A stretch of 50,309 nt of DNA from Shigella phage Sfin-3, in sequence record MN296515. One strand, given 5' to 3'. Both the position numbers and the translations under genes were made by a program. Below are positions 162-49,954 of the stretch, one piece after another (within the stretch, counting starts at the first letter, position 1; each line of letters starts with the position of its first letter). The notes below the pieces were generated by a model. It saw only the letters and a list, made by a program, of their open reading frames with translations. It was not told where the DNA came from and ran no database searches.

Positions 162-310
162 TGGCTGCATGGGTATTGATTATCTTGATGAGCACCGGGC
201 CGGATCACGTATACATGGAAAGTCAGCAAGCATGTAACAAGGCTCGGGAAGTAATTGCAGAAAACAAGCCGTTCGGATACGAAGTAAAAACAATGTGCGT
301 TAAACGATAG
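161..310 (+). CDS. hypothetical small protein (49 aa, hydrophobic N-terminus)
   Basis: ATG 161 overlaps upstream stop; TAG stop 308-310 is first triplet of promoter-module palindrome; below ORF-track size cutoff. Confidence 0.35.
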   Translation: MAAWVLIILMSTGPDHVYMESQQACNKAREVIAENKPFGYEVKTMCVKR

Positions 311-350
311 CAAGAATTGCTAAACCTTCCGCAAGGCCATTTGATATAGT
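308..350 (+). promoter_or_regulatory. composite promoter module (palindrome TAGCA-agaat-TGCTA, 22-nt spacer, -10 TATAGT)
   Basis: Palindrome 308-322; -10 345-350 inside hairpin 333-356; ATG 391. Confidence 0.55.
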
Positions 351-390
351 GGCCTTATTGAAGCACGGCAACCAATCAGAGGAATCAGCT

Positions 391-603
391 ATGGCTACAC
401 GACTCACGCAGTGGCAGATTTACGACAAGGCTTCACGCCTTCGTGAATCACTTCGAGGTCTGACACCGAACGATCGCATGGAAATCATCGGTCATGCATT
501 GCACGAACTAACGTCTCAGGACGTAATCTATCATTCGTGCGGCAATAAGTTATGGAACGTAACATTTGAGGTAAAGAAAGATGAGCAAGATTCACAAACT
601 TAA
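391..603 (+). CDS. hypothetical protein (70 aa)
   Basis: ATG 391 preceded by AACCAATCAGAGGA RBS and promoter module 308-350; track ORF 349 begins with GTG inside the promoter hairpin. Confidence 0.55.
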   Translation: MATRLTQWQIYDKASRLRESLRGLTPNDRMEIIGHALHELTSQDVIYHSCGNKLWNVTFEVKKDEQDSQT

Positions 604-868
604 GATCAATCCTGTACATTTCATTGGTGTAATGAACGGAACCAAAACGGCAGAGTTCCGCATTAATGACCGCAACTTCCAGCTTGGCGATATCCTGGAG
701 CTATGCGAGTTCGATCGTGACGAGTTTACCGGGTGGGAAGTTCACGCCAGGGTGTCCGATGTTACAGACGTGACGCCATACATCAATCGCGGGTATGACG
801 ATCAGGAATGCGACTTCACGCAATACGTGATGTTATCAATCAAACCTTACAGGAAGGTTAGACCATGA
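581..868 (+). CDS. ASCH/DUF3850-like protein
   Basis: 95 aa; N-terminal KLKINPVHF...G.KT.EFR.NDR.FQ.GD pattern resembles ASCH/PUA-like DUF3850 domains; RBS gaggtaaag. Confidence 0.55.
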   Translation: MSKIHKLKINPVHFIGVMNGTKTAEFRINDRNFQLGDILELCEFDRDEFTGWEVHARVSDVTDVTPYINRGYDDQECDFTQYVMLSIKPYRKVRP

Positions 869-1503
869 AATTTGAATGCGTATCAAGTGACGGAACGGGA
901 TTTAAGTGGGGAAAAATCTACGAAGGCGCTCGCGTCAATAACGACAGCTTCGTTGTCGTGGATGAGCACGGTAGCAATGTGAACATCATCCGTCGTCACG
1001 AATACCAAGAAATTTTCCTGCCGTATGGCGGTAGTTCAAAATATATCTTCCATCGAATCGTGGATGGTGTTAAATTTAACGACGTAATCGAAGCAATCAA
1101 CCAACTGCATAATAAAGAGGTAAAATTTATGAAATTTGAATGTATCAGTGATAACACCAAAAAATTTACTGTTGGCAAAATCTACGACGTTCCTACTGAG
1201 CACGCAAAGCACACTGTAGCGCTTACTGACGACACGGGCCGTCACCGCATTGCTACCGTAACGCATAATGGCGAAGGTCTGCGATGGAATAGCGGCAGCA
1301 CTAAGTTTGCAACGTTCGGCAAGAAGCGTAAGCGCACTTTCTGCGTTAAAGGCAAGGTTGCAGCAAACAAGATCCACAACGTCAAGCCGTCGGAAGTTGA
1401 CAGCAAGCCAGCACTTAAGTTTGAAGATAAGGCAGATTTGTCTGGTCTGGCTATCGCTCTTGTTCTCCTGGTTGCTTCGATTTCTCTGATGTTCATCATG
1501 TAA
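865..1503 (+). CDS. tail-anchored membrane protein with internal tandem repeat
   Basis: 212 aa; two ~65 aa repeats each starting MKFEC(V/I)S...GKIY; C-terminal hydrophobic helix LAIALVLLVASISLMFIM. Confidence 0.6.
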   Translation: MKFECVSSDGTGFKWGKIYEGARVNNDSFVVVDEHGSNVNIIRRHEYQEIFLPYGGSSKYIFHRIVDGVKFNDVIEAINQLHNKEVKFMKFECISDNTKKFTVGKIYDVPTEHAKHTVALTDDTGRHRIATVTHNGEGLRWNSGSTKFATFGKKRKRTFCVKGKVAANKIHNVKPSEVDSKPALKFEDKADLSGLAIALVLLVASISLMFIM

Positions 1504-1510
1504 TTTTAAC

Positions 1511-1544
1511 GGGGAATCGGCTCTGAACGGTTCCCCTTTATTTT
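1511..1544 (+). terminator. rho-independent terminator candidate
   Basis: Stem GGGGAA/TTCCCC (1511-1516 / 1531-1536) with 14-nt loop, then TTTATTTT. Confidence 0.4.
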
Positions 1545-1556
1545 GGAGAAAACACT

Positions 1557-1667
1557 ATGCCAGACTTTTCTAACTGGAATAACGAGCCGCCATCATTTCA
1601 GGAGTTGCTATTCTGCCTCTTGGTCCTGACATTATCTCTTAAGGGTGTTTTATGGCTACTATCATGA
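1557..1667 (+). CDS. hypothetical small hydrophobic peptide (36 aa)
   Basis: ATG 1557 with GGAGA RBS directly after hairpin 1511-1544; hydrophobic LLFCLLVLTLSL; overlaps next ORF. Confidence 0.3.
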   Translation: MPDFSNWNNEPPSFQELLFCLLVLTLSLKGVLWLLS

Positions 1668-1870
1668 CAGCAGAAGATGCAGCACGCGACGCAGTGGAAG
1701 GAATGCGCCCAAATACCTCCAGAATAGCACACTACTACAAATCTGAGGTGTCGGCAGTGCAATTGGTCAACGAAATTTTAAGGCTGCCACAAGTCGATTC
1801 AGCGCGCGTGGTGACGTGCTTAAAAAATTATTTTTGCATCACTATTAAAACGAATAGCACGAATTGCTAA
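1652..1870 (+). CDS. hypothetical protein (72 aa)
   Basis: Track ORF; weak AGGG RBS; TAA stop lies inside promoter-module palindrome 1855-1869. Confidence 0.35.
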   Translation: MATIMTAEDAARDAVEGMRPNTSRIAHYYKSEVSAVQLVNEILRLPQVDSARVVTCLKNYFCITIKTNSTNC

Positions 1871-1897
1871 AACCTATCAAGGGGAATGCGCTATGAT
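1855..1897 (+). promoter_or_regulatory. composite promoter module (TAGCA-cgaat-TGCTA, 22 nt, -10 TATGAT)
   Basis: Palindrome 1855-1869; -10 1892-1897 in hairpin 1881-1902; ATG 1928. Confidence 0.55.
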
Positions 1898-1927
1898 TCC
1901 CCTACACCAACAAACGAGGAAACGATA

Positions 1928-2374
1928 ATGAAACACTTAATCTGCATTGAAGCGCCTAACTATGAATACACTCTGCACGGCATTGGAATGTTCAAAGGCC
2001 ACTACATGACAGCAAGCATTTATGATGCGCATCGAGGCGATGGCGATCTAATGATTACTTCAAAAGAAGTTAATCCGTACATCATGCAGAATCTCGGGAA
2101 CAATGAGTATATGGCTTACGGATGCAACGCGGTGTACAAGCATATCAAGATCCGCAAGCGCGTAGTTCGCGCATTCAAGAAGATTGCAATTAAATACTGG
2201 AAGATGAGCAAGAAGGACGCCGGAACATGGGCGCGTAACGTTGCTGATTCATACTTCTATCGTAACGGTGAGTCGTGCTACTTTTTGATCGATGATATTC
2301 ATGACAATTACGGCGGCTCATTCAGTCAGGAAGAGTTTGATAGCTGGGCTGAATACGAGATCAGTTGCTGGTAA
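1928..2374 (+). CDS. hypothetical protein (148 aa)
   Basis: ATG 1928 with GAGGA RBS downstream of module 1855-1897; track ORF 1886 starts inside promoter hairpin. Confidence 0.6.
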   Translation: MKHLICIEAPNYEYTLHGIGMFKGHYMTASIYDAHRGDGDLMITSKEVNPYIMQNLGNNEYMAYGCNAVYKHIKIRKRVVRAFKKIAIKYWKMSKKDAGTWARNVADSYFYRNGESCYFLIDDIHDNYGGSFSQEEFDSWAEYEISCW

Positions 2375-2417
2375 TAGCACTAATTGCTAAAACTTGCTCA
2401 AGGGCATTTGATAGAAT
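2375..2417 (+). promoter_or_regulatory. composite promoter module (TAGCA-ctaat-TGCTA, 22 nt, -10 TAGAAT)
   Basis: Palindrome 2375-2389; -10 2412-2417 in hairpin 2401-2422; ATG 2458. Confidence 0.55.
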
Positions 2418-2457
2418 GCCCTTCGTTGAGTTAAGCAACCAATCATAGGAATAAATC

Positions 2458-2991
2458 ATGGATAAAATTACCATTTGGGGTCAAACTATCAACCTGTTTC
2501 TCGGCACGCGATGCGTGGCAATCTTTGACTTTGACGGAACGCTTAGTGATGGATCAAAGCGCCTTCACCTGTTGCCGACAAAGGATTTGCACTTAACTGA
2601 AAGCTGGTCTGAGTTTAACCGAGCGGCAATATTTGATAACCCAATCCAGAGCACGATTGAGGTTATGAACTCTATGTTTGCTGCCGGGTATCACGTAATA
2701 GTTTTAACCGGGCGAAGTGATGAGGTTCGTTACGCATCTGAGTTATGGCTTAAGCATCACGGTGCGAGATATGATTACTTAGTCATGCGACCGCACACAG
2801 ACAACAGGAAAGACACGGTGATGAAAGAAGAAGCGGTTCGAGCGATCGGTATTGAAAACATCCTGGCAGCTTGGGATGACTCACCGCAAATTATTCCATT
2901 ATTCCGGTCGCTTGGAATAACAACATATGCGGTAGTTGACTATGGCGATAACATTCACGATCATTTAAAATCGCACGGGGTAGAGAAATGA
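2458..2991 (+). CDS. HAD-family phosphatase, T4 Pnk 3'-phosphatase-domain-like
   Basis: 177 aa; IFDFDGTLSD (DxDGT motif), VIVLTGRSD, RKDTVMKEE align by eye to the C-terminal phosphatase domain of T4 polynucleotide kinase. Confidence 0.7.
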   Translation: MDKITIWGQTINLFLGTRCVAIFDFDGTLSDGSKRLHLLPTKDLHLTESWSEFNRAAIFDNPIQSTIEVMNSMFAAGYHVIVLTGRSDEVRYASELWLKHHGARYDYLVMRPHTDNRKDTVMKEEAVRAIGIENILAAWDDSPQIIPLFRSLGITTYAVVDYGDNIHDHLKSHGVEK

Positions 2992-3098
2992 ACCTATACG
3001 AATTTATTGCAGCACATCCGGTATTGACGGTTATCATCCTGCTAATCATCAATCACACCATCATCAATATGGCAAAATTATTTTTAGGGAGATACTAA
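2988..3098 (+). CDS. hypothetical small membrane peptide (36 aa)
   Basis: ATG overlaps upstream TGA (ATGA); hydrophobic core VLTVIILLIINHTII; not in ORF track. Confidence 0.3.
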   Translation: MNLYEFIAAHPVLTVIILLIINHTIINMAKLFLGRY

Positions 3099-3099
3099 T

Positions 3100-3672
3100 A
3101 TGAAAACAGCTATCATTTTAAACGGCGCTCCTGGAGCAGGCAAGGACACTATCGGATGCATCCTGGCTGACACTTACGATCATGTAGCTTTGCGCAGCTT
3201 CAAAGCACCAATGTTTGAGATTGCTCGGGCAATACTGGGTGAGGCTAACTACGAGTATTTCATGTTCTTGTATGAGGATCGTCGTTACAAAGAAGAGCCA
3301 GCGTCAATCCTGAACGGTAAAAGCCCTCGCCAGTTTATGATCTGGATTAGCGAGGAAGTCATCAAGCCACAGTTCGGAAATCGATTCTTCGGTATGCGAG
3401 CGGAAAGCAAGGTCAAAGAGTCATATTCTCTGTCAGTATTTACTGATGGTGGATTCAAAGATGAGGTATTGCAGATGATTGAAGGTGATATCCAGGTCAA
3501 GCTATGCCGAATCCACCGCAAAGGCTGCAACTTTGACAACGACAGTCGTGATTATATTTACCTGGAAGATATGATCGGGGTTAATGGTTATCAGGAGTGT
3601 GATTTTTTCTCTGTCGAAGGTCATCCAGAAATTACCGCTCAGCACATAGCCGCTACGTTCATCAACAAATAG
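3100..3672 (+). CDS. P-loop nucleotide kinase, dNMP kinase (T4 gp1)-like
   Basis: 190 aa; Walker A GAPGAGKDT and ILNGKSPRQ resemble T4 deoxynucleoside monophosphate kinase; TAG stop is first triplet of palindrome 3670-3684. Confidence 0.65.
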   Translation: MKTAIILNGAPGAGKDTIGCILADTYDHVALRSFKAPMFEIARAILGEANYEYFMFLYEDRRYKEEPASILNGKSPRQFMIWISEEVIKPQFGNRFFGMRAESKVKESYSLSVFTDGGFKDEVLQMIEGDIQVKLCRIHRKGCNFDNDSRDYIYLEDMIGVNGYQECDFFSVEGHPEITAQHIAATFINK

Positions 3673-3712
3673 CACGAATTGCTAAAACGTCGGTGGGGTG
3701 ATTTGATATAGT
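3670..3712 (+). promoter_or_regulatory. composite promoter module (TAGCA-cgaat-TGCTA, 22 nt, -10 TATAGT)
   Basis: Palindrome 3670-3684; -10 3707-3712; ATG 3745. Confidence 0.55.
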
Positions 3713-3744
3713 TACCTCATCGACAACGAAGAGAGAAAATCGAA

Positions 3745-3954
3745 ATGATGGTATCAACTGATAAGTTTTTCACTTGCACTAAAACTTCTGAAGTATTCGA
3801 ACTCGTTCATACTGATAACGGTGATTTCATGCATGACGGTTGCGACGTTTTCATTGAAGTGAAAGAAAGCGACTATGATGACGGAGTTTATTACAACCCG
3901 GCAGTGAACACTCAGTTTTTTACACCGATCGAAGATGAAGGAGAAGAGGCATGA
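3745..3954 (+). CDS. hypothetical protein (69 aa, acidic C-terminus)
   Basis: Track ORF; GAGAGA RBS; downstream of module 3670-3712. Confidence 0.55.
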   Translation: MMVSTDKFFTCTKTSEVFELVHTDNGDFMHDGCDVFIEVKESDYDDGVYYNPAVNTQFFTPIEDEGEEA

Positions 3955-4295
3955 TTACGATTAACCTATCAGAGAAGCAAGCTCGTGAAATCCTTGATGC
4001 GATCGGCGACCAATTGCACGTAAAAGGAGCAACTGCCGAGTTGCTCAACCAGATCGAAAAGCAACTTACTCCTGTTTCAACGAATCAAGCTGAGTTTGCA
4101 GCCTGGAAGAGCGAGCGCATCCTGCCAAATATCATCAAGGCATGGAAGCGCAAGCATAAAAAAGAAATCAATGTTGATGACTTATTTTCTGATGAATTAA
4201 GTCCTTCAAAGGTTGCTCAATATCAGTTGCGATACATGGAATCAGTTTGCAATCAGATCTTAAATGTCAACTTTTCATTCGGGAGTGGTAAATAA
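3951..4295 (+). CDS. hypothetical protein (114 aa)
   Basis: Track ORF; start overlaps upstream stop (ATGA). Confidence 0.55.
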   Translation: MITINLSEKQAREILDAIGDQLHVKGATAELLNQIEKQLTPVSTNQAEFAAWKSERILPNIIKAWKRKHKKEINVDDLFSDELSPSKVAQYQLRYMESVCNQILNVNFSFGSGK

Positions 4296-4525
4296 TGTTT
4301 GGTTTAAGTGAAGCGGAATGGAACGTGGTAAAGCGCGCGGCGAAGGAATTGAATAAATTTGTTAGCGGAATGAAGAAGGAAGATCGCAAAAACGAAAAGA
4401 TTATGATTGATGTGATCTCAACTCATCACAAAAAGGTTGAGCTACTCATCGACCGCTACAAGTTTGTATGGACCGCCGGATATATTGCAGGGCGCGTAGG
4501 TAACAAAGAGGGTGATTACGAATAA
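4295..4525 (+). CDS. hypothetical protein (76 aa)
   Basis: Track ORF; translationally coupled to neighbours. Confidence 0.5.
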   Translation: MFGLSEAEWNVVKRAAKELNKFVSGMKKEDRKNEKIMIDVISTHHKKVELLIDRYKFVWTAGYIAGRVGNKEGDYE

Positions 4526-4728
4526 TGGCTAACTTACCGAAGAAAGGCGATCAGGTTCGATGTGTTACATCACGCAATGGTGATGCTTTCTCAGCGGGAT
4601 GCTTGTATGACGTTGAAAAAGTAAGTAAAGCAAAGAGACTCGTATTTGTATACGGAGACGATGGAAATATTCATGAGATTGACTACCCGCAGGATATTAC
4701 TAAGGGCCAATTTGAAATTAATGATTGA
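4525..4728 (+). CDS. hypothetical protein (67 aa)
   Basis: Track ORF; start overlaps upstream stop. Confidence 0.5.
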   Translation: MANLPKKGDQVRCVTSRNGDAFSAGCLYDVEKVSKAKRLVFVYGDDGNIHEIDYPQDITKGQFEIND

Positions 4729-4754
4729 CCTGAATCTCTGAGCGGTGATAGTAT
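4725..4754 (+). promoter_or_regulatory. sigma70-like promoter candidate (TTGACC-18-TAGTAT)
   Basis: -35 4725-4730, -10 4749-4754; precedes 140-nt structured leader of gene 4893. Confidence 0.3.
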
Positions 4755-5500: not shown

Positions 5501-5515
5501 TAGCACTAAATGTTA
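5501..5515 (+). promoter_or_regulatory. degenerate palindrome copy (TAGCA-ctaaa-TGTTA) without 22-nt-spaced -10
   Basis: Sits between terminator 5460-5480 and TerS start; only TATATT 11 nt downstream. Confidence 0.35.
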
Positions 5516-5533
5516 AACAAAGAGGGTATATTT

Positions 5534-7720: not shown

Positions 7721-9004
7721 ATGAAAATTGTTAAGCATGATGGATATAACGATATCTTTAACGGCGGTGCGGACGGCTCACCTAAGCCATTCTTTATGTC
7801 CGACGCATCATATCACGTCGGCTCTTTCTACAACGATAACGCCACAGCAAAGAGGATTGTAGACGTAATACCTGAAGAAATGGTTACGGCTGGATTTAAA
7901 ATATCAGGCGTCAAGGATGAAAAAGAGTTCAAATCTCTGTGGGATAGTTACAAAATTGATCCTAGCTTGGTTGATGTTCTTTGCTGGGCGCGCCTATACG
8001 GTGGGGCGGCTATTGTAGCAATCATTAAAGACAACAGAATGCTAACCAGTCCAGTTAAACCTGGAGCTAAACTTGAAGGTGTGCGTGTTTACGATAGGTT
8101 CGCAATTACAATCGAAAAAAGAGTAACCAATGCGCGATCGCCTCGCTATGGTGAGCCTGAGATCTATAAGGTGTCGCCCGGTGACAATATTCAACCTTAC
8201 TTAATCCACCACACGAGAATTTTCATTGCTGATGGTGAGAGAGTTACCCCTCAGATGCGGAAGCAGAATCAGGGGTGGGGTGCTTCAGTTTTGAATAAGT
8301 CACTGATTGATGCAATCTGCGACTACGACTATTGCGAATCACTTGCGACTCAGATCCTGCGGCGTAAGCAACAGGCGGTATGGAAGGTCAAAGGTCTTGC
8401 CGAAATGTGCGATGATGACGATGCTCAGTATGCTGCGCGCCTGCGACTTGCTCAGGTTGATGACAACTCCGGAGTAGGCCGTGCGATCGGTATCGATGCT
8501 GAGACGGAAGAATACGATGTTCTAAACTCTGATATCAGCGGAGTGCCTGAGTTCTTATCGAGCAAGATGGATCGTATTGTTTCCCTTTCCGGGATTCATG
8601 AGATTATCATCAAAAATAAGAACGTAGGCGGCGTATCAGCGAGCCAAAATACAGCACTTGAGACTTTCTATAAGCTGGTAGATCGTAAGCGTGAGGAAGA
8701 TTACAGGCCTCTTCTTGAGTTCTTGCTGCCGTTCATTGTTGACGAGCAAGAGTGGTCGATCGAGTTCGAGCCTTTATCCGTTCCTAGCAAGAAAGAGGAA
8801 TCAGAGATCACGAAGAATAACGTTGAGTCGGTTACGAAAGCTATCACTGAGCAAATCATCGATCTGGAAGAAGCTCGCGACACGTTGCGATCTATTGCCC
8901 CTGAGTTCAAACTCAAGGATGGTAATAACATCAACATTCGCGAACCGGAAGAAACTACCGAACCGGAACCTGGATTAGGGGAGAAGTTAGAAGATGAAAA
9001 TTAA
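7721..9004 (+). CDS. portal protein
   Basis: 427 aa between TerL and head morphogenesis gene; ATG 7721 with GGAGGA RBS lies downstream of hairpin 7685-7710, so track start 7670 rejected. Confidence 0.75.
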   Translation: MKIVKHDGYNDIFNGGADGSPKPFFMSDASYHVGSFYNDNATAKRIVDVIPEEMVTAGFKISGVKDEKEFKSLWDSYKIDPSLVDVLCWARLYGGAAIVAIIKDNRMLTSPVKPGAKLEGVRVYDRFAITIEKRVTNARSPRYGEPEIYKVSPGDNIQPYLIHHTRIFIADGERVTPQMRKQNQGWGASVLNKSLIDAICDYDYCESLATQILRRKQQAVWKVKGLAEMCDDDDAQYAARLRLAQVDDNSGVGRAIGIDAETEEYDVLNSDISGVPEFLSSKMDRIVSLSGIHEIIIKNKNVGGVSASQNTALETFYKLVDRKREEDYRPLLEFLLPFIVDEQEWSIEFEPLSVPSKKEESEITKNNVESVTKAITEQIIDLEEARDTLRSIAPEFKLKDGNNINIREPEETTEPEPGLGEKLEDEN

Positions 9005-12187: not shown

Positions 12188-12208
12188 CACAAAAACACTT
12201 TGACGCTT

Positions 12209-12223
12209 TAACAAAAAGTGCTA
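12209..12223 (-). promoter_or_regulatory. orphan palindrome copy, antisense to late operon
   Basis: Minus-strand reading TAGCA-ctttt-TGTTA; no - strand gene downstream; adjacent to terminator 12232-12257. Confidence 0.35.
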
Positions 12224-15934: not shown

Positions 15935-15973
15935 TCTGTAAAATCATCGTATCAAGTTTGCACTATTCTCTTT

Positions 15974-15988
15974 TAACAAAAAGTGCCA
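15974..15988 (-). promoter_or_regulatory. orphan palindrome copy, antisense to late operon
   Basis: Minus-strand reading TGGCA-ctttt-TGTTA between tail tube and chaperone genes; 22 nt then TACGAT on minus strand. Confidence 0.35.
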
Positions 15989-31493: not shown

Positions 31494-31508
31494 TAGCACG
31501 AATTGCTA
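31494..31508. promoter_or_regulatory. palindrome copy in operator position at tail-fibre promoter
   Basis: TAGCA-cgaat-TGCTA lies between the predicted TSS of the - strand sigma70-like promoter (31516-31544) and the tail-fibre RBS. Confidence 0.45.
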
Positions 31509-31515
31509 AACACAG

Positions 31516-32521: not shown

Positions 32522-32559
32522 AATAAAAAACGCGTAGAAGGATGTTAACCCGCTACGCG
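32522..32559 (-). terminator. minus-strand terminator candidate after Cro-like gene
   Basis: 7-bp stem ACGCGTAG/CTACGCGT with 15-nt loop followed by T7 on minus strand. Confidence 0.45.
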
Positions 32560-32568
32560 TCGTTTGTT

Positions 32569-33021
32569 TTAACTAAAAATGCTATTGGTCGTTCCGATAT
32601 CTTCCTTCTTGACAACTCGCATAAACTTCTTGTTTTTGCAGCGCTTCTCAAGGCACTTGCCGTTCCCATCAAACTTCAGATCGAATCGCAGCCATGCGGC
32701 CCGAAATCCTTTGCAACCCTGTCGGCGATAAGCACGATGCGCCGCTTCAGCGCCTTGCCAGGAAATCATATTTCGATCCTTCCACCCTTGAACCGTCTGG
32801 TTGCTAACTTTCAGAGCCTTTGCGCAAGCCGCCGGACCACCATAATATTCAATAAGAGCATCCAATCGCGCTCTCAGTCCTGCGCGCGTTTCTTCTTTAT
32901 GGATATAAAATCCGCAGCGCTGGCGAGGCTTTTTATCTTTACCGCGTCGTGTTCCGTTGTTACCATTGATGTGACGTTTATCGATTTCACCAGTAGACTC
33001 TGCGATACGCTTCATATTCAT
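32569..33021 (-). CDS. Cro/YdaS-like HTH DNA-binding protein
   Basis: ATG 33021 with GGAGA RBS (track start 33093 would overlap the promoter); central ...ACAKALKVSNQTVQGW...RFDL resembles YdaS/Cro-type HTH; basic N-terminus. Confidence 0.5.
   Translation of the reverse strand: MNMKRIAESTGEIDKRHINGNNGTRRGKDKKPRQRCGFYIHKEETRAGLRARLDALIEYYGGPAACAKALKVSNQTVQGWKDRNMISWQGAEAAHRAYRRQGCKGFRAAWLRFDLKFDGNGKCLEKRCKNKKFMRVVKKEDIGTTNSIFS
32570..32584 (-). promoter_or_regulatory. degenerate palindrome copy (TAGCA-ttttt-AGTTA) at 3' end of Cro-like gene
   Basis: Encodes the C-terminal NSIFS* of the Cro-like protein; followed on minus strand by terminator 32522-32559. Confidence 0.3.
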
Positions 33022-33034: not shown

Positions 33035-33077
33035 TAGCACTTTTTGCTAAAAACGTTTACTGTATGCCGTGTATTAT
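33035..33077 (+). promoter_or_regulatory. composite promoter module for helicase operon (TAGCA-ctttt-TGCTA, 22 nt, -10 TATTAT)
   Basis: Palindrome 33035-33049; -10 33072-33077; GTG 33116; palindrome is also in the 5' leader of the divergent Cro-like gene. Confidence 0.55.
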
Positions 33078-33101
33078 ATCGTAAACGATACAACGATTCA
33101 A
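33073..33101 (-). promoter_or_regulatory. sigma70-like promoter for Cro-like gene (TTGAAT-17-TATAAT)
   Basis: Minus-strand -35 33096-33101, -10 33073-33078; its -10 overlaps the + strand -10 (33072-33077) of the helicase promoter. Confidence 0.55.
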
Positions 33102-35134: not shown

Positions 35135-35547
35135 TTACAGATAAAGGCGATTACTTAGAGTTTTACGAGCGAGATCCTAGCGACACGCGAAAGGAGGACG
35201 CTCATCAAGTAGACTGCGTGTCCTGGTTGAAATACAATTTTCCTCAGCTTCTATTTTGGCACACAGTTAACGAAGGTGAAAAAACAATCACTTCGGCACT
35301 TAGGGATGAGCAGGCTGGATTACTTAAAGGCGTATCAGACTTTGTTATTCTGATTGGTATAAACTCACGTTACCCGTTCGCAGCTATCGAACTCAAGCGG
35401 GTTAATAAGTCCGGCAAAGGAAAGGCATCACCAGTCAGCGATAAGCAAAGGGAGTTTCTCAAAAAGGTTCGGGATCGCGGTGGATTCTCTGCCGTTGCAT
35501 ACGGATTTGAGCAATTCAAGCTGGCAATATACGATTTAACGAAATAG
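35131..35547 (+). CDS. VRR-NUC domain nuclease
   Basis: 138 aa; GVSDFVI...ELKRVNKSGKGKASPVSDKQREF pattern of VRR-NUC (PD-(D/E)XK) domains. Confidence 0.7.
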   Translation: MITDKGDYLEFYERDPSDTRKEDAHQVDCVSWLKYNFPQLLFWHTVNEGEKTITSALRDEQAGLLKGVSDFVILIGINSRYPFAAIELKRVNKSGKGKASPVSDKQREFLKKVRDRGGFSAVAYGFEQFKLAIYDLTK

Positions 35548-35587
35548 CACTTTTTGCTAAACATGCCGGAATGGATTCTGGCATTAT
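35545..35587 (+). promoter_or_regulatory. composite promoter module (TAGCA-ctttt-TGCTA, 22 nt, -10 CATTAT)
   Basis: Palindrome 35545-35559; -10 35582-35587; ATG 35615 (dam). Confidence 0.5.
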
Positions 35588-35614
35588 TATCTCACTGAAA
35601 CGAGAGGATTAAAA

Positions 35615-36328: not shown

Positions 36329-36576
36329 TGAACGATAAAATGATTCCGGTTAAGTTAACTGATCAAGGTTTATGGCTGCTTTATCGAGCTACCTGCTGCG
36401 AAATTATGGAGCGAAACGGATTGACTCAGGATGTTATTGGTTGCGATCTGTGGGAGTTCACTAGTTCTCTTGATATGTCTTTCGATGAGATAAAAAATGA
36501 ACACATAGAGAATTGGCCTTCAATCATACAGAAAGACGTGGAAGAACTTAAAGCTTATACAATCGTAAAGCACTAA
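36325..36576 (+). CDS. hypothetical protein (83 aa)
   Basis: ATG 36325 overlaps dam stop (ATGA), RBS GTGAGGAAAG; TAA stop inside palindrome 36568-36582. Confidence 0.55.
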   Translation: MMNDKMIPVKLTDQGLWLLYRATCCEIMERNGLTQDVIGCDLWEFTSSLDMSFDEIKNEHIENWPSIIQKDVEELKAYTIVKH

Positions 36577-36610
36577 TTGCTAAAACTACCCGGCGAAAGT
36601 CGGGTATAGT
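36568..36610 (+). promoter_or_regulatory. composite promoter module (AAGCA-ctaat-TGCTA, 22 nt, -10 TATAGT)
   Basis: Palindrome 36568-36582; hairpin 36588-36605; -10 36605-36610; ATG 36643. Confidence 0.55.
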
Positions 36611-36642
36611 TATTTCATCAAAACGAAATGAGGAATAAGAAG

Positions 36643-37412: not shown

Positions 37413-38564
37413 ATGTCACAAGCTAAAATCACTACCGAGCAACTTATCGAAGAGCGCATGAGCGGCCTTACACTTCGCGAGATTGCGGAAAAGTACGGTA
37501 TGCACATCCGCACTGTTGAAGCTCGTCACGCAAAACTTGCAAAGGAAGGTCACTTCCACGGTAACGAGCATGTTGCTAAGAACGTACCGGAAGGATTCAT
37601 GGTAAAAGGCACATCAACGATGATTCGCGGCGATGGGACCGAGGTAGTGCGATGGGTTAAGACCGATCAGGACCGTGAGAAGATTGCGGCAATGATGGAA
37701 GCAGCGCGTATTGCATTCTGTGAAGACTTGCCGCGAGCAAAACCAACTGAGCTACTCACATCGCAAGGGCTTACAACCGCTATTGGCAAGCTGGCACTCT
37801 ACCCGGTGTTCGATCTTCACATTGGCGCGCTTGCTCACAAGCATGAATGCGGAGAGAACTACTCTACAGACGTAGCGGAAAAAGTGCTGAATGACTTCTT
37901 TAACTACGCGATCGATATTGCCCCGAACGCAGAGAAGGCTGTTCTGTTAATCGGCGGCGACTTCCTTCACTCAGACGGTCTTGATGCTGTTACCCCGGCA
38001 AGCGGTCACGTTCTGGATCAGGATTCACGATATGCGAAATTGGTGCATGTGGCTATTCGATCGGTGCGACGAGCTATCGACAAAATGCTGACTAAACACA
38101 AAGAGGTCGAAGTTCAGGTTATCGAAGGGAACCACGACCAGGCCGGAATGATTTGGCTACGCGCTGCAATGGCTGCATACTATGAGGACGAGCCGCGAGT
38201 ATTCGTTGACGTTAGTCCTATGATTCTGCATAAGACCCGCTGGGGAAATACCTTGTTGGGATACACTCACGGTCACACGATGAAAAAGGCAGACACGCGA
38301 CTTGCAGCGATGGCGGCAGACTTCCGTGCAGACTTCGGTGAAAGCAAATACGTGTATACTCACAGTGGACACTGGCACCATCAAACAATCACAGAACACT
38401 CGTTAGGTATTGATGAGGTTCACGGGCAGTTAGGCGCGAAAGATGCATACGCCGCGCGAGGCGGGTGGCGCTCATATCGCCAGGCGGCGGTAATCGTTTA
38501 CGATAAACAGTTTGGTGAAATCGGTCGATTCATCTATCGTCCAGAAATGACAGGATCGCACTAA
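37413..38564 (+). CDS. HTH domain fused to calcineurin-like metallophosphoesterase
   Basis: 383 aa; N-terminal LTLREIAEKYGMHIRTVE (sigma-region-4/LuxR-like HTH); then DLH, GDFLHSDG, GNHD, GHTM, GHWHH phosphoesterase motifs. Confidence 0.65.
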   Translation: MSQAKITTEQLIEERMSGLTLREIAEKYGMHIRTVEARHAKLAKEGHFHGNEHVAKNVPEGFMVKGTSTMIRGDGTEVVRWVKTDQDREKIAAMMEAARIAFCEDLPRAKPTELLTSQGLTTAIGKLALYPVFDLHIGALAHKHECGENYSTDVAEKVLNDFFNYAIDIAPNAEKAVLLIGGDFLHSDGLDAVTPASGHVLDQDSRYAKLVHVAIRSVRRAIDKMLTKHKEVEVQVIEGNHDQAGMIWLRAAMAAYYEDEPRVFVDVSPMILHKTRWGNTLLGYTHGHTMKKADTRLAAMAADFRADFGESKYVYTHSGHWHHQTITEHSLGIDEVHGQLGAKDAYAARGGWRSYRQAAVIVYDKQFGEIGRFIYRPEMTGSH

Positions 38565-38598
38565 TTGCTAAAAATACCCGAATGGACTCGGGTATAGT
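38556..38598 (+). promoter_or_regulatory. composite promoter module (TCGCA-ctaat-TGCTA, 22 nt, -10 TATAGT)
   Basis: Palindrome 38556-38570; hairpin 38575-38594; -10 38593-38598; ATG 38628. Confidence 0.55.
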
Positions 38599-38627
38599 AG
38601 ACACATAGAAAATAAAGAGGACATATC

Positions 38628-40255: not shown

Positions 40256-40292
40256 GATGTTTTCCTTCAGGTCGTTTCATTTCGATGAAACA

Positions 40293-40335
40293 AATATACC
40301 CGATACGAGATCGGGTGTTTTAACAAAAAGTGCTA
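40293..40335 (-). promoter_or_regulatory. composite promoter module, minus strand (TAGCA-ctttt-TGTTA, 22 nt, -10 TATATT)
   Basis: Palindrome 40321-40335; hairpin 40298-40316; -10 40293-40298; ATG 40255. Confidence 0.5.
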
Positions 40336-40444: not shown

Positions 40445-40852
40445 TCAAATTCTTCCTTTGTAAGCTGGAGTCTTGCGCACAATTCGACGTTCCGATCTAT
40501 CAATGTTTCTACGTTCGCCAAACAAATCCTCATCACTCATCTCTCCAATATGCATCATTTCCCATGTATACCGATTGTTGTAACCATCAATACACATCAG
40601 CTTCATCATTACCGGGCGCTTAATCTTTCCCTTGCACCAGTAAACACCATCCTTGCGATCCAAGTAACCCTCAGTTACGCAACGAGAGCAAAACTCCTTA
40701 GATAGCGCACTTGTAAATTCACGGTGAGTCATTCCAGCAGCCTTAGCAAATCGCTCACTTTCCTTGTGGGCGTATATAAATTTCGCTATGTGCTGTCGGG
40801 TGTATTTGTCGTAACCTTCGCAGAACCTGAACAGATCTAAAAGAAGCAGCAT
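40445..40852 (-). CDS. hypothetical protein (135 aa, Cys-rich), operon partner of P-loop ATPase
   Basis: Track ORF; start 4 nt after stop of upstream ATPase gene. Confidence 0.55.
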   Translation of the reverse strand: MLLLLDLFRFCEGYDKYTRQHIAKFIYAHKESERFAKAAGMTHREFTSALSKEFCSRCVTEGYLDRKDGVYWCKGKIKRPVMMKLMCIDGYNNRYTWEMMHIGEMSDEDLFGERRNIDRSERRIVRKTPAYKGRI

Positions 40853-42425: not shown

Positions 42426-42454
42426 CACAATAAACTCCTTAGTTGACGGTGTAA

Positions 42455-42497
42455 ATGATACACCGCCAATGGTATACGCTTTTTGCAAAAAGTGCTA
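42455..42497 (-). promoter_or_regulatory. composite promoter module, minus strand (TAGCA-ctttt-TGCAA, 22 nt, -10 TATCAT)
   Basis: Palindrome 42483-42497; -10 42455-42460 inside hairpin 42448-42464; ATG 42425. Confidence 0.5.
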
Positions 42498-42918: not shown

Positions 42919-42954
42919 TTCGTTAACTCCTGATTGGTTATCTTGAATAAGGTC

Positions 42955-42997
42955 ACTTTATCAAATGACCTTACGGCAATATTAACAAATCGTGCTA
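42955..42997 (-). promoter_or_regulatory. composite promoter module, minus strand (TAGCA-cgatt-TGTTA, 22 nt, -10 TAAAGT)
   Basis: Palindrome 42983-42997; -10 42955-42960 inside hairpin 42950-42972; ATG 42918. Confidence 0.5.
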
Positions 42998-43436: not shown

Positions 43437-43468
43437 TTTTAATTCCTTTGTTTGTTTGATGTGGGAGT

Positions 43469-43512
43469 AATATACCTTACTCCCTGATGATTGTCTTTAG
43501 CTATTCGTGCTA
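43469..43512 (-). promoter_or_regulatory. composite promoter module, minus strand (TAGCA-cgaat-AGCTA, 23 nt, -10 TATATT)
   Basis: Palindrome 43498-43512; -10 43469-43474 in hairpin 43463-43484; ATG 43436. Confidence 0.45.
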
Positions 43513-44790: not shown

Positions 44791-44821
44791 CTTATCAATC
44801 TCCTGATTGGTTGGTGTGTTC

Positions 44822-44864
44822 ACTATACCCCGATTCCCTTCGAGGCGTTTAGCAAAAAGTGCTA
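44822..44864 (-). promoter_or_regulatory. composite promoter module, minus strand (TAGCA-ctttt-TGCTA, 22 nt, -10 TATAGT)
   Basis: Palindrome 44850-44864; -10 44822-44827; ATG 44790. Confidence 0.55.
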
Positions 44865-45252: not shown

Positions 45253-45286
45253 TTTTGTTTTTCCTCAATCTCGTTTCGATGAGGTA

Positions 45287-45329
45287 ATTATGCCAAATCA
45301 CACCGATCGAGTTTTAACAAAAAGTGCTA
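45287..45329 (-). promoter_or_regulatory. composite promoter module, minus strand (TAGCA-ctttt-TGTTA, 22 nt, -10 CATAAT)
   Basis: Palindrome 45315-45329; -10 45287-45292; ATG 45252. Confidence 0.5.
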
Positions 45330-46018
45330 TCCGCGATAGCTTTAAAAAATCCCCTGGGCGACAGGGATCGTATCAACTTAGTTTTGGCAGATTTGCCGCC
45401 CAGCTTGTTTTGCTGTGCAGAGTACCCGTCAGGCAGGTTTACAGGTTTTCTCTCGGGCATGACAAAATCGCCAGAGGTCCAAAGACAAGTTTTCTTCGGA
45501 TAAGCATCGCGCGGCGCAATATACATCGGGAACCAGGGATGTGAGTCATTCTCAGGAAGATAGCCGCCATACTCCCAGGGATTGAAGGAGTGATTTGGTT
45601 TTCTCCACGCAGACGACAGGACGCTCACCGGATTCTCAATGATGTAAGTCACGCCCAGGCTATCTCCAATGTTCGCAGCAATCCGGGCGGTGGCGACAGC
45701 TTTCTCCTGGAACAACGGATCACGTTCACGCTTGCTGGCAAAGTGGCGAGCACCACTAACAGCCAGGTCAGTGCACGGCGGGAAGGCTATAATGAAATCC
45801 GGCTTGCCATACACGCCAGCTATAGCATCACGCTCAAACGCTGCGTCAATGAACACGTTCACATACTCAATGTTCGGATGCTCCACTCGGGCATTGTACT
45901 TTGCATAATCCCCGTGATCGGCTCCGTCAAAGTTGAAGCACATCACCTTGTGACCTTGCTTAGCCAGTTCATGACCTGCAAGGCCGGAACCGTCGAATAG
46001 CGACCAAATCAACTTCAT
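45314..46018 (-). CDS. small DNA (cytosine-5)-methyltransferase-like protein
   Basis: 234 aa; motif I SLFDGSG, motif IV FPPC (catalytic Cys), motif VI ENP in canonical order; shorter than typical C5-MTases. Confidence 0.55.
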   Translation of the reverse strand: MKLIWSLFDGSGLAGHELAKQGHKVMCFNFDGADHGDYAKYNARVEHPNIEYVNVFIDAAFERDAIAGVYGKPDFIIAFPPCTDLAVSGARHFASKRERDPLFQEKAVATARIAANIGDSLGVTYIIENPVSVLSSAWRKPNHSFNPWEYGGYLPENDSHPWFPMYIAPRDAYPKKTCLWTSGDFVMPERKPVNLPDGYSAQQNKLGGKSAKTKLIRSLSPRGFFKAIADSTFC

Positions 46019-46158
46019 TTTGCGATCTCCTTTTTGTAGTGATTCAGCTTGTCGATGATTGACTTCGACTTGTTGGCTAGCGCCATGTCAGAGAACAGAG
46101 CCACGCGATAGATGTGTTCGTAACGATTAATGGCCGCGTTGATGTTTGCAATATTCAT
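46015..46158 (-). CDS. hypothetical small protein (47 aa)
   Basis: ATG 46158 with CAACCAATCAGAGGA RBS; track GTG start 46197 would overlap the -10; stop overlaps next ATG. Confidence 0.45.
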   Translation of the reverse strand: MNIANINAAINRYEHIYRVALFSDMALANKSKSIIDKLNHYKKEIAK

Positions 46159-46188
46159 GTCGATTCCTCTGATTGGTTGATGTGATGA

Positions 46189-46233
46189 ATCATACACTGC
46201 CAGCCTGACCAGGTCGTTAGCAAAAAATGCTAT
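46189..46233 (-). promoter_or_regulatory. composite promoter module, minus strand (perfect TAGCA-ttttt-TGCTA, 24 nt, -10 TATGAT)
   Basis: Palindrome 46219-46233; -10 46189-46194; ATG 46158. Confidence 0.5.
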
Positions 46234-46433
46234 TCCAATAGTTGCTCATTATTCCACCAGTAATGGAATATCTGGAATAATTGCGATCCCGATTGATCTC
46301 GAATGATGAAATGTGATTGTTGCATGATGTGCAACTGTTGATGTGATTGTTGCTTGGAATGCAATGATTGTGAGAGGGAGGATTTAGTGTTACCCGGTTC
46401 GCCTGGTAGTCATCTCCATTTTTAGCAAAACGT

Positions 46434-46448
46434 GCTATCGATTACACT
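46434..46448 (-). promoter_or_regulatory. palindrome copy (TAGCA-cgttt-TGCTA) without evident -10
   Basis: Minus-strand orientation in intergenic region B; no TATAAT-like hexamer at 22-24 nt. Confidence 0.35.
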
Positions 46449-46754
46449 TTAACTTGTCACGACTGTAATATTTGTCTAGAATCGCACTTGTGACAAAATT
46501 ACGCACTGTGACGCATAACAATAGACATGTAGATATATGTATATATATAATATATATAGTGTTTTTTTATTTATATATATAGATAATCATATTGTAATGG
46601 TTGTGTATAGCCGTCTTACATTGTCTAGCGTACTGTTGGCATATTTCTATCTGCATGTTTATATATACAGTACTTTTTTGAGAGCCATATATTTCTATAT
46701 GGACCCTAGACAGCTAGACAAATGTTACACAGCTTAAAATTGGCTCGCAGGCAT

Positions 46755-46783
46755 TGACAGCCCTACATTGCGCCGTCACAATG
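46755..46783 (+). promoter_or_regulatory. weak sigma70-like promoter candidate (TTGACA-17-CACAAT)
   Basis: -35 46755-46760 perfect, -10 46778-46783 poor; in AT-rich region B upstream of gene 46842. Confidence 0.3.
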
Positions 46784-46841
46784 GCAATTGTTGACATGTT
46801 ATGACAACATTTACACATCAATAGACAAATAAGGATGAATT

Positions 46842-47357
46842 ATGAGCAATACCAATCAGGAATTAAAAATCACCGATATGATTCGACTAACCTGCGATGC
46901 AATGTACCGCGACAAAGGCATGACCGAGTTCTCTTTCGTGGCTGATGATATGGCCATCGAGGCCGCGCGATTCTACTTCCGTGGCCAGGAGGTAAGCGAT
47001 GCCGATCTTGAATCTGCCGCTGCCGGATGGGTGGACCAGAACCAGGGGGAGGTAGAGAAGAGATTCAAGTCCGCTTTCATTACTCCGATCATTACCCGGC
47101 ACTTTTGCAAGTACGGCAAGGTGGCAAAGGTGAAGGTAGGCCGGAATGACGCGGCAATCACAATGATAACCGTTATCGTTACAGACGAAGAGGTTCCAGT
47201 GAAGAAACGCCGTAGCCGGAAAAAAGTTAGCCTGGCCGACTGCCTGGATTCGTTTGATGTTGATGTTAGCAAGCTATCCGATAGCGAGTTAATGGTTCGT
47301 GATGTGAATGAGATCGTGCGCCAGATGAAAGCGCATATTGAAAAGTGTGGACTGTAA
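46842..47357 (+). CDS. hypothetical protein (171 aa)
   Basis: Track ORF; first gene after AT-rich region B; AAGGATGAA RBS. Confidence 0.6.
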   Translation: MSNTNQELKITDMIRLTCDAMYRDKGMTEFSFVADDMAIEAARFYFRGQEVSDADLESAAAGWVDQNQGEVEKRFKSAFITPIITRHFCKYGKVAKVKVGRNDAAITMITVIVTDEEVPVKKRRSRKKVSLADCLDSFDVDVSKLSDSELMVRDVNEIVRQMKAHIEKCGL

Positions 47358-47372
47358 CGCTGATAGGTGAAA

Positions 47373-47415
47373 TAGCACTTTTTGTTAAAGCTCGGTCGAG
47401 CGGATCGGGTATTAT
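47373..47415 (+). promoter_or_regulatory. composite promoter module (TAGCA-ctttt-TGTTA, 22 nt, -10 TATTAT)
   Basis: Palindrome 47373-47387; -10 47410-47415; ATG 47448. Confidence 0.55.
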
Positions 47416-47447
47416 CTTTTCATCGACACGATACAGAGGAAACGAAG

Positions 47448-47642
47448 ATGGAAACGCAAATTGACGTAGTGGTTGTTCAGCGGGACTCAACTCATGAAAA
47501 GGGTCTTTTCAAGAAAGGAACCGAAATCACGATCGACCTTGAGGATATGGTTGCGTATCACTCGGGCCTTACCTGGAACGTGGTGCGCGTAGGGAGCGAC
47601 TACAAACTCAAAGGCTTTAACACTTACTTTGCGGAGGCTTAA
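47448..47642 (+). CDS. hypothetical protein (64 aa)
   Basis: ATG 47448 with CAGAGGAAACGAAG RBS after module 47373-47415. Confidence 0.5.
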   Translation: METQIDVVVVQRDSTHEKGLFKKGTEITIDLEDMVAYHSGLTWNVVRVGSDYKLKGFNTYFAEA

Positions 47643-47644
47643 TC

Positions 47645-48115
47645 ATGGCGACAATTACCGTATTTCTTGCTAAAGATGAACTTGACGATGAAATGTCATT
47701 CTTCGCATTCGAGCACAAAACCGGATCGCACTGGCACACTTACAGCCATTACACGGTTATCTCAATCGAAGCGTACGACGGCGAACTGCTCACTGATAAA
47801 CTGAGTAATTTCATTGAAGCCGTTAAAGCTAGCGGCGGCTGCGAGTGGAAGGAAGATCACGAAGTTATGCGAATGCTTGAGATGGTCAATCCGGTTCGAC
47901 TTGAGTCTTTCGAGCTTGATTCTGACGTGAGCATTAAGGTGAGAAAGCCGGGTGAGTTGTTGCCGGGGATGCGTGTGCTGACTGGTTACTCAGGTCGTAA
48001 AGTGTGGCGAACCATATCGAAGATTCGCCAGCGTTCGGCAACATGCTATAGCGTATTCTTTGATGACGGCTGGAATGAGGTTGCTGGTAGTAACGTGAAG
48101 TATCTTACCAAATAG
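47645..48115 (+). CDS. hypothetical protein (156 aa)
   Basis: Track ORF; TAG stop is first triplet of palindrome 48113-48127. Confidence 0.55.
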   Translation: MATITVFLAKDELDDEMSFFAFEHKTGSHWHTYSHYTVISIEAYDGELLTDKLSNFIEAVKASGGCEWKEDHEVMRMLEMVNPVRLESFELDSDVSIKVRKPGELLPGMRVLTGYSGRKVWRTISKIRQRSATCYSVFFDDGWNEVAGSNVKYLTK

Positions 48116-48155
48116 CACGAATTGTTAAAACAGGATCGGGGTATCTTGCTATAGT
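48113..48155 (+). promoter_or_regulatory. composite promoter module (TAGCA-cgaat-TGTTA, 22 nt, -10 TATAGT)
   Basis: Palindrome 48113-48127; -10 48150-48155 inside hairpin 48138-48161; ATG 48194. Confidence 0.55.
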
Positions 48156-48193
48156 TACCCCATCAAAACGAGATACCAATCAGAGGATTCACC

Positions 48194-48424
48194 ATGTCAA
48201 TCGTCAAGAACCAACAAGCCATCGACTCAACCAGCCACAACCGCTTTGCTATTTTCATCACATCTATAGGTCGCCGATTTGCAGTTAAGGCCGCGCCTGG
48301 TGGATACAAAACATACATGGAGGATAACGGGAAATGGGTGTGGTGCGAAAACCTAGCCAACTTCCTGGTATGGAACGCAGACCTGCAAGGATTCGATGAT
48401 ATCAGCACTTTAATTGAGGAGTAA
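48194..48424 (+). CDS. hypothetical protein (76 aa)
   Basis: Track ORF; ACCAATCAGAGGA RBS; module 48113-48155 upstream. Confidence 0.5.
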   Translation: MSIVKNQQAIDSTSHNRFAIFITSIGRRFAVKAAPGGYKTYMEDNGKWVWCENLANFLVWNADLQGFDDISTLIEE

Positions 48425-48430
48425 ATAATA

Positions 48431-48658
48431 ATGCCACGTTACAGTAACCTAACCAAACTAGTCCGCGTCAACGGGCATATGATCCCGGCTAAATCTACTC
48501 ACTGCGCGAAAGGCGCAAAGCACGGATTATATTTCAAGTGGCGCGGTCAATGGAACTTCACGGCGGTGAGCAATTTTTACATGCGAGTTCCAGGTGATGA
48601 CCCGCAATCGGTAGTAGAAAACTCAATAGGTGACAACAAGATCGAGGTGCTAAAATGA
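48431..48658 (+). CDS. hypothetical protein (75 aa)
   Basis: Track ORF. Confidence 0.5.
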   Translation: MPRYSNLTKLVRVNGHMIPAKSTHCAKGAKHGLYFKWRGQWNFTAVSNFYMRVPGDDPQSVVENSIGDNKIEVLK

Positions 48659-48765
48659 ACTTCAATACAATAGCTCTATGGTCTGCCGTCTGGTTCTTCT
48701 GCATGGGTCACGTTATGGTCGGCATCGTGGTAATGCTTCCCCTGTGTGCGGGGGCGTTCGAATGA
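48655..48765 (+). CDS. hypothetical small membrane peptide (36 aa)
   Basis: ATG overlaps upstream TGA; hydrophobic ALWSAVWFFCMGHVMVGIVVMLPL; below ORF-track cutoff. Confidence 0.35.
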   Translation: MNFNTIALWSAVWFFCMGHVMVGIVVMLPLCAGAFE

Positions 48766-48935
48766 TGCGAATATTGATTTGCATGATGGCGGCTGTCGCC
48801 CTGGCTATCCTGGTAGTGTCCGGCTGCGGCGAGGTCAAAGAGCGATGCCATGAAACCGGGAGCCAGGCTACTACTTTCGTGATGGTTGGCAATGTTTTGC
48901 TACCAATCACATCAAATGAGATCACTTGCGAATAG
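48762..48935 (+). CDS. putative small lipoprotein (57 aa)
   Basis: ATG 48762 overlaps upstream stop (ATGATG); signal peptide with lipobox VVSGC; track ORF 48678 has a longer unsupported N-terminus. Confidence 0.45.
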   Translation: MMRILICMMAAVALAILVVSGCGEVKERCHETGSQATTFVMVGNVLLPITSNEITCE

Positions 48936-48944
48936 GATTTAACA

Positions 48945-49136
48945 ATGGCTGATTTTATGCACCAAATGATTGCAGTATTCAAAGGTAGTGAGGACCAGGA
49001 AGTGAAAGAGTGCTTTACCGTTGACAAGCCTTATAGTGCGTCGCTAACCAGCTTCGGTAACGTCTCATTGCTTGATGATAATGGCGACCCCTGGGTATTC
49101 GACGAAGATACTGATTGCTTCGAAATTAAAGAATAG
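48945..49136 (+). CDS. hypothetical protein (63 aa)
   Basis: Track ORF; TAG stop is first triplet of palindrome 49134-49148. Confidence 0.5.
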   Translation: MADFMHQMIAVFKGSEDQEVKECFTVDKPYSASLTSFGNVSLLDDNGDPWVFDEDTDCFEIKE

Positions 49137-49176
49137 CACTTTTTGTTAAAACTCAATTCCGGGGTTGCGATATAGT
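49134..49176 (+). promoter_or_regulatory. composite promoter module (TAGCA-ctttt-TGTTA, 22 nt, -10 TATAGT)
   Basis: Palindrome 49134-49148; -10 49171-49176 inside hairpin 49161-49182; ATG 49207. Confidence 0.55.
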
Positions 49177-49206
49177 AACCCCATCGATAACGAACGAGGA
49201 TTTATC

Positions 49207-49413
49207 ATGAAACTGCGGTGCATTGAATCAAATCAAATTAACTACTCAGAAGGCTTCGAATATGTCGCTCAAATCGATAGCTTTACAAACAAAAGCGGAG
49301 AGGTTATTGATGTGGTTCATGGAGTGTATACGTGGTTCTACTTTGACAAGAAAGCGCTAACAGCAACTAAGCACAATGGCGATGTGGTGGCTAAATTTAA
49401 ACGTGAACAATGA
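49207..49413 (+). CDS. hypothetical protein (68 aa)
   Basis: ATG 49207 with GAGGA RBS after module 49134-49176. Confidence 0.5.
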   Translation: MKLRCIESNQINYSEGFEYVAQIDSFTNKSGEVIDVVHGVYTWFYFDKKALTATKHNGDVVAKFKREQ

Positions 49414-49424
49414 GGATTGAAATC

Positions 49425-49913
49425 ATGAAAATTAAATTACTTTGCACTGGCGGTTACAAGGGCTTTACTCGCGACCTGGAATCTGACCCTATTATCGTTG
49501 ACGCCGTGAAGTGCGATGATAGCACGGGCGGCTACCGCGTAAAGGTCGATGACCTGGTTAAAGCTGGCGTGTACGATCTCGATTACGGCCTATCGGTTAG
49601 TCCAGTATTTGGCCCGGCTGACTTCAACGAGAATGACGGAACGATGTTCTTTTTTGAATGGGAAGTTCAGGCAAACATCAAGCCGCGAAAGGTTCGGCTT
49701 CTAAACAATGGCGGGTATCCTATGCGCCCTGGTTATGAGAATCGCACGTTCCCGGTTATTGTTGACTTTGAGGAAATTACCAGCACCCTGGCTTACGTTG
49801 GCAATGAACAACTCAATGCTGTAGGTTTTTGGGGTGGGATGAATAAAGAGTCACTTTGCTTCTTCCATCGCGACTCCGAACCGTTCTCTATTGAGTGCGA
49901 GCTAGTCTACTAA
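49425..49913 (+). CDS. hypothetical protein (162 aa)
   Basis: ATG 49425 with TGAGGATTGAAATC RBS (49410 alternative). Confidence 0.55.
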   Translation: MKIKLLCTGGYKGFTRDLESDPIIVDAVKCDDSTGGYRVKVDDLVKAGVYDLDYGLSVSPVFGPADFNENDGTMFFFEWEVQANIKPRKVRLLNNGGYPMRPGYENRTFPVIVDFEEITSTLAYVGNEQLNAVGFWGGMNKESLCFFHRDSEPFSIECELVY

Positions 49914-49954
49914 GCACGAATTGTTAAAAGTGGATTCGTCCTGACTGGTACAAT
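49912..49954 (+). promoter_or_regulatory. composite promoter module (AAGCA-cgaat-TGTTA, 22 nt, -10 TACAAT)
   Basis: Palindrome 49912-49926; -10 49949-49954; ATG 49985. Confidence 0.5.

Follow-up and report, generated by a model that had tools for sequence, protein, structure and literature searches.

A repeated, phased element of the T1-like phage Sfin-3 and its relatives as a candidate promoter cassette without a -35

Introduction

What is the function of the palindromic repeat that recurs ahead of so many genes in T1-like phages? The stretch of DNA analyzed here (the window, 50,309 nucleotides of Shigella phage Sfin-3, MN296515) is a T1-like (Drexlerviridae) genome, in which a preliminary description had reported a family of composite elements, each with a palindrome followed at a fixed distance by a -10 hexamer. 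The implied novelty of the repeat was overstated, as its core had been published for Stevie in 2015, with 20 copies noted in T1 (PMC4319613), and for TLS in 2024 (PMC11447400). The published "21/22-bp repeat" of the T1 family (VWATAGCAYKWWTTGYTAAAAV / aaATAGCACnnnTTGnTAAAA) is the same sequence as the present box. It was characterized as asymmetric, intergenic and transcription-oriented, lying ~76 nt before start codons in 16-21 copies per genome; its role was given as unknown, and a stoperator, an enhancer site or an UP element were the ideas floated (PMC4319613, PMC11447400). The in-register -10, the G at -14, the start dinucleotide and the missing -35 are absent from both papers, as are the spacer hairpins and the inverted orphan copies.

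Results

Occurrence of the repeat

The core TAGCA-N5-TGYTA gives 28 strand-matches (19 sites) in the window against 0.16 expected, a number reached in 0 of 100 shuffles. Allowing up to two mismatches, the longer form TAGCAC-N3-TTGYTAAAA (TAGCACNNNTTGYTAAAA) is found at 24 sites where 0.24 are expected, and relaxing the core search to three mismatches adds three sites. The multi-copy composite element is therefore real, and its 19 complete copies, 12 on the + and 7 on the - strand, were reproduced copy by copy (Table 1). Every Drexlerviridae genome tested contains 14-24 copies of the core, two outgroups contain 0-1, and multi-copy matches in IMG/VR are confined to T1-sized contigs. The weight matrix of the box is identical across eight genomes, including the Vc1/HCF1 clade, with G3, C4, C6 and G12 conserved at 92-100% in the window profile.

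Promoter geometry

A -10 was scored at element positions 38-43 when at least four of six bases matched, A2 and T6 being required. Pooled over seven genomes, 96 of 126 copies have the hexamer in exactly this register, compared to a background of 2%, and in 12 further copies it lies within ±1. Among the 96 register-holding copies, G is found at -14 in 78, and a pyrimidine-A at -1/+1, with the start 7 nt past the -10, in 80. The anchored profile of the window has G36 in 21 of 24 copies, T38, A39 and T43 each in 19-22, C49 in 15 and A50 in 20. Besides the box and the -10, conservation extends to a G at -14, to C-A as the start dinucleotide and to a ATCGAAACGA leader, all of which the preliminary description lacked. 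In 17 copies, as first stated, 22 bp separate TTGYTA from the -10; the remaining two (43512 and 46232) both have 23 bp, and the 24-bp copy of the preliminary description is not among them.

Counted from the predicted +1, the box begins at -50 and ends at -32, and its dyad is centred on -42. The canonical -35 slot (element positions 15-20) reads AAAACN in the window and in the seven-genome pool, in agreement with the earlier claim that there is no σ70 -35. A full extended -10 of the TG-n-TATAAT type is present in ~40% of modules, the T of the TG motif being missing in more than half. All 19 complete copies in the window have the orientation of the downstream gene, as claimed, with a Shine-Dalgarno sequence (SD) and start codon 17-34 nt past the predicted +1; counted over 116 modules, an SD and start codon follow 98 (median 5'UTR 26 nt). 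Five upstream frames do end on the TAG of the element (at 308, 3670, 35545, 48113 and 49134). With a looser open-frame criterion, frames also end on this TAG at 40335 and 46232, and other upstream frames stop on a TAA inside TAAAA or 1-3 nt upstream. Because literature searches found no mapped transcription start site for any T1-like phage, the -10-only promoter is a reading that we infer from sequence statistics in the window and seven relatives, which support the proposed geometry, the dyad near -42 and the strict phasing. The element copies most likely mark the early and middle promoters of the phage.

Table 1. Element copies, candidate readers and associated features in the window
Positions	Strand	Feature	Details
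308..357	+	complete module	core 308-325; -10 TATAGT; predicted +1 357; gene start 391; hairpin dG -15.7
1855..1904	+	complete module	core 1855-1872; -10 TATGAT; gene start 1928
2375..2424	+	complete module	core 2375-2392; TG-n-TAGAAT; gene start 2458 (polynucleotide kinase)
3670..3719	+	complete module	core 3670-3687; TG-n-TATAGT; gene start 3745
33035..33084	+	complete module	before helicase gene (GTG 33116)
35545..35594	+	complete module, class B	hairpin 35563-35584; before Dam methylase (35615)
36568..36617	+	complete module, class B	hairpin 36587-36606, GAAA loop, then TATAGT
38556..38605	+	complete module, class B	gene start 38628
47373..47422	+	complete module, class B	hairpin 47390-47410
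48113..48162	+	complete module, class A	ggggta...tacccc stem around TG-n-TATAGT, end at -1
49134..49183	+	complete module, class A	
49912..49961	+	complete module	TG-n-TACAAT
40286..40335	-	complete module, class B	hairpin 40316-40298
42448..42497	-	complete module	before DNA helicase / gp10-like operon
42948..42997	-	complete module, class A	TG-n-TAAAGT
43462..43512	-	complete module	23-bp spacer
44815..44864	-	complete module	
45280..45329	-	complete module	upstream methylase gene stop is TAA inside core
46182..46232	-	complete but degenerate module	3 mismatches; 23-bp spacer
32535..32584	-	core with in-register TAACAT	within loop of strong terminator, dG -16.9; ahead of primase gene
15939..15988	-	full module, antisense in late region	TG-n-TACGAT; T1 counterpart 18849(-)
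12206..12223	-	orphan core, inverted	55 nt upstream of major capsid gene
31494..31511	+	orphan core, inverted	21 nt upstream of tail-fibre gene start; conserved in T1, Rtp
5501..5518	+	orphan core	abuts terS RBS, without -10; conserved in T1 at 8363
46420..46437	-	orphan core	edge of 400-bp non-coding region with canonical σ70 promoters
32569..33021	-	Cro/cI-like HTH regulator (T1 gp23 family)	candidate reader (a)
33073..33101	-	canonical σ70 promoter of regulator gene	TTGAAT-17-TATAAT
37413..38564	+	metallophosphoesterase, N-terminal σ-region-4-like HTH	candidate reader (b)
40445..40852	-	winged-helix protein (T1 gp10 family)	candidate reader (c); invariant helix 3

Hairpins in the spacer

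The spacer usually bears a hairpin, a feature that the preliminary description lacked. The mean dG is -11.8, compared to -5.5 for random 40-mers (p = 1e-26); the sense strand folds more stably than the antisense in 68 cases and the reverse is found in 28 (p = 8e-8), and the stem mispairs comprise 59 G·T versus 22 A·C (p = 5e-5). The module at 3670..3719 has a 15-bp sense-only hairpin (dG -22.4 sense, -8.0 antisense). Stem 3' ends cluster at element positions 49-50 and 37-38, that is, they end at -1 or -13. Four hairpins in the window are terminator-like by scan, and such hairpins are annotated as terminators in the T1 and Stevie records; the one at 35563-35584, followed by the -10 and a T-rich tail, has a T1 equivalent annotated in this way. 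At orthologous loci the hairpin is retained and its stem sequence replaced. Pairing is kept in 12 of 18 double changes, compared to 20 of 70 in slid-partner controls, and single substitutions frequently disrupt the predicted stems (79 vs 28). Column-wise covariation of the stems is at noise level only, so that the hairpins are no more than a soft constraint. Located upstream of the cassette's own predicted start, the hairpin should form only in read-through RNA.

It is possible to see in all this an RNA element, with the core stem, the variable hairpin and the AUCGAAACGA leader as a signal for processing, stability or translation and TATAGT as incidental, e.g., the U-rich tail of a terminator. 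The core as RNA would form a 5-bp stem, UAGCA/UGCUA, the AUCGAAACGA leader is conserved, and variation at Y13 leaves G3 paired (G-C or G-U) on the sense strand only; yet the rare core variants (A1, C2, A11, A14) are never compensated, which argues for recognition by sequence and not by pairing. Sense-strand selection of hairpins with G·U pairs and the terminator look of class-B hairpins would also fit an RNA signal, and upstream genes stop inside the core, which is consequently transcribed as 3'UTR. However, the G at -14, the A-11/T-7 and the pyrimidine-A start are exact σ70 signals that hold register while the hairpin shifts between class A and class B, and conserved sites carry inverted copies. 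We regard the RNA element as quite improbable.

Incomplete, orphan and inverted copies

Incomplete or atypical copies are found at 5501(+), 12223(-), 31494(+), 46437(-), 32584(-), 15988(-), 35936(+) and 36900(+). The predicted promoter at 32535..32584 is embedded in a terminator, an arrangement found also in T1, KpKT21phi1 and Stevie. The inverted core of 15939..15988 lies 22 nt ahead of the tape-measure-chaperone start, and the orphan site upstream of the capsid gene is also occupied in T1, Vc1 and Stevie. The core of 33035..33084 doubles, inverted, as part of the leader of the divergent regulator gene.

In the gp23 leader and beside late-gene ribosome-binding sites, binding to the box can only repress. 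The elements might therefore be shut-off operators, firing early with host polymerase alone and silenced later by a phage repressor (gp23 or another) at -50 to -32. A stoperator-like idea has been raised before (PMC4319613, PMC11447400), gp23 has a Cro fold, and many modules have TG-extended -10s, although more than half of the modules are without the T of TG and would be weak alone. Exact phasing is not needed by a repressor, yet 96 of 126 copies are in one register; moreover, the missing -35 of ~100 promoters and the directionality of the element are left unexplained, and the variability of gp23 helix 3, described below, counts here too. A shut-off operator thus appears doubtful.

Candidate readers of the box

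As readers of the box, the preliminary description had named the Cro/YdaS-like HTH protein, the HTH-phosphoesterase or a host factor. The gp23 model matches Cro/cI folds, with PDB 1rio (cI-σ4-DNA) among the matches. Only this HTH regulator, present family-wide, is preceded by a canonical -35/-10 promoter, which matches at 9-11 of 12 positions in each of the five genomes checked; the leader of its gene contains the box. The recognition helix of gp23 is hypervariable, and that of the Vc1/HCF1 clade is wholly different, whereas the box matrix there is identical; gp23 is poorly supported as the reader. The phosphoesterase has a σ4/LuxR-like HTH that does not vary within the family. HCF1, however, lacks the gene and retains nine modules; this proposal fares no better. 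The T1 gp10 family winged-helix protein is a new candidate, with a merely generic winged-helix fold. In a Keio screen of the TLS-like phage LL5, only receptor/LPS genes plus secB and ppiB were required, and deletion of lrp, crp, fis, ihf or fnr gave no hit (PMC7229145); this speaks against a non-essential host factor as the reader. A phage-encoded factor is plausible in view of this screen without a host transcription factor requirement, the regulator's own promoter and the three phage proteins with DNA-binding folds, none of which (gp23, phosphoesterase, gp10-like) passes every test. It should be mentioned that the 19-bp box is invariant though the proteins diverged to ~50% identity, which counts against a phage reader and is an easier fit for host polymerase.

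Of the host global regulators, Lrp offers the best sequence match: both arms of its consensus YAGHAWATTWTDCTR, as quoted in PMC5554404, are matched at 11-12 of 15 positions, and Lrp is conserved across hosts. Besides the negative result for lrp and the other regulator deletions in the LL5 screen (PMC7229145), C6 and A16-A18 of the box are invariant without basis in this consensus (A or T being expected at position 6), and the information content of the box is far above that of a typical Lrp site. The probability that a palindrome matches some degenerate transcription-factor consensus by chance is estimated to be substantial, and an Lrp site is highly improbable here.

With every phage candidate failing some test, host σ70 holoenzyme could also read the box directly, without an accessory factor, treating it as an atypical -35-like element, upstream or distal. 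TTGYTA retains the TTG of TTGACA, but the 22-bp spacer displaces it upstream by 5 bp and turns it to the wrong face for contact with σ region 4. The A-tracts on both sides could serve α-CTD; however, UP elements are without invariant G/C, and G3, C4, C6 and G12 are 92-100% conserved. A box invariant in eight genomes with proteins at 45-65% identity suits a host reader that is itself near-invariant. Polymerase is essential, and no requirement for a non-essential host gene emerged from the Keio screen; ~40% of modules have the full extended -10. The dyad symmetry, in contrast, indicates a dimeric reader, and direct reading gives no role to the inverted orphans beside late-gene ribosome-binding sites. 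We consider direct reading by σ70 possible, though unlikely.

Discussion

Building on the phased element, its family-wide invariance, and the enrichment and strand bias of its hairpins, we propose, with a probability of about 0.55, that the complete element is a T1-family promoter cassette with a σ70 -10, no -35, a box bound by a dimeric phage activator, and a read-through hairpin. Host σ70 polymerase would read the extended-type -10 (G at -14, TATAGT-like hexamer) and initiate at the conserved A, 7 nt past it. The invariant, directional 19-bp pseudo-palindrome A-TAGCAC-N3-TTGYTAAAA would fill -50 to -32 with fixed helical phasing, where a dimeric phage-encoded DNA-binding protein most likely recruits or stabilises polymerase by a class-II logic, analogous to λ cI at OR2/PRM, Mu Mor at Pm and LuxR at the lux box. 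The class II interpretation offered earlier is thus consistent with the geometry, the orientation and the missing -35, while the readers named for it are not borne out. Since ~40% of modules have a full extended -10, a type able to function with no activator, activation is not required by the sequence. The -10-less inverted copies ahead of the regulator, tail-fibre and capsid genes may be operators or roadblocks for the same protein. The sense-selected hairpin would form in transcripts from the upstream gene, and it takes the form of an intrinsic terminator wherever the T-rich -10 region comes next. Restricted in this way to upstream transcripts and of terminator form, it suggests that each cassette probably ends or caps the upstream RNA and then restarts transcription.

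Comparison with known systems

The TAGCAC...TTGC of the box has a superficial likeness to σ54 (-24/-12) promoters, TGGCAC-N5-TTGCW. It differs from them in a block spacing that is 2 bp too short (N3, not N5) and in the conserved σ70-type -10 located 22 bp downstream. The stoperators of mycobacteriophage L5 are also asymmetric, multi-copy, intergenic and in a single orientation to transcription. They are bound by a prophage repressor and keep no set distance to a -10, whereas the T1-like family is described as virulent and its box holds a fixed register to the -10. T4 middle promoters (MotA box plus σ appropriation by AsiA) likewise combine a σ70 -10 with a phage-specific upstream box that replaces the -35, the MotA box being TTGCTT-like, with many copies over the early/middle region. 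The MotA box has its centre at -30 and is ~12 bp away from the -10, compared to a centre at -42 and a distance of 22 bp for the present box.

Pm of phage Mu is also a σ70 promoter whose -10 is good while a usable -35 is lacking, and a dyad centred near -43.5 overlaps the -35; Mor, and C at the late promoters, is a small phage dimer that binds the dyad and contacts polymerase. Mu has one Pm and four late promoters compared to ~20 cassettes here, the box sequences are unrelated, and none of the annotated proteins was recognised as a Mor/C homolog. At OR2/PRM and at the lux box, λ cI and LuxR bind as HTH dimers with dyad centres at -42 and -42.5, respectively, and touch σ region 4. The likeness may extend to the proteins, the gp23 model matching Cro/cI folds and the phosphoesterase HTH being σ4/LuxR-like. 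PRM, however, retains a weak -35, while that slot is an A-tract here, and the readers of the present box are candidates only.

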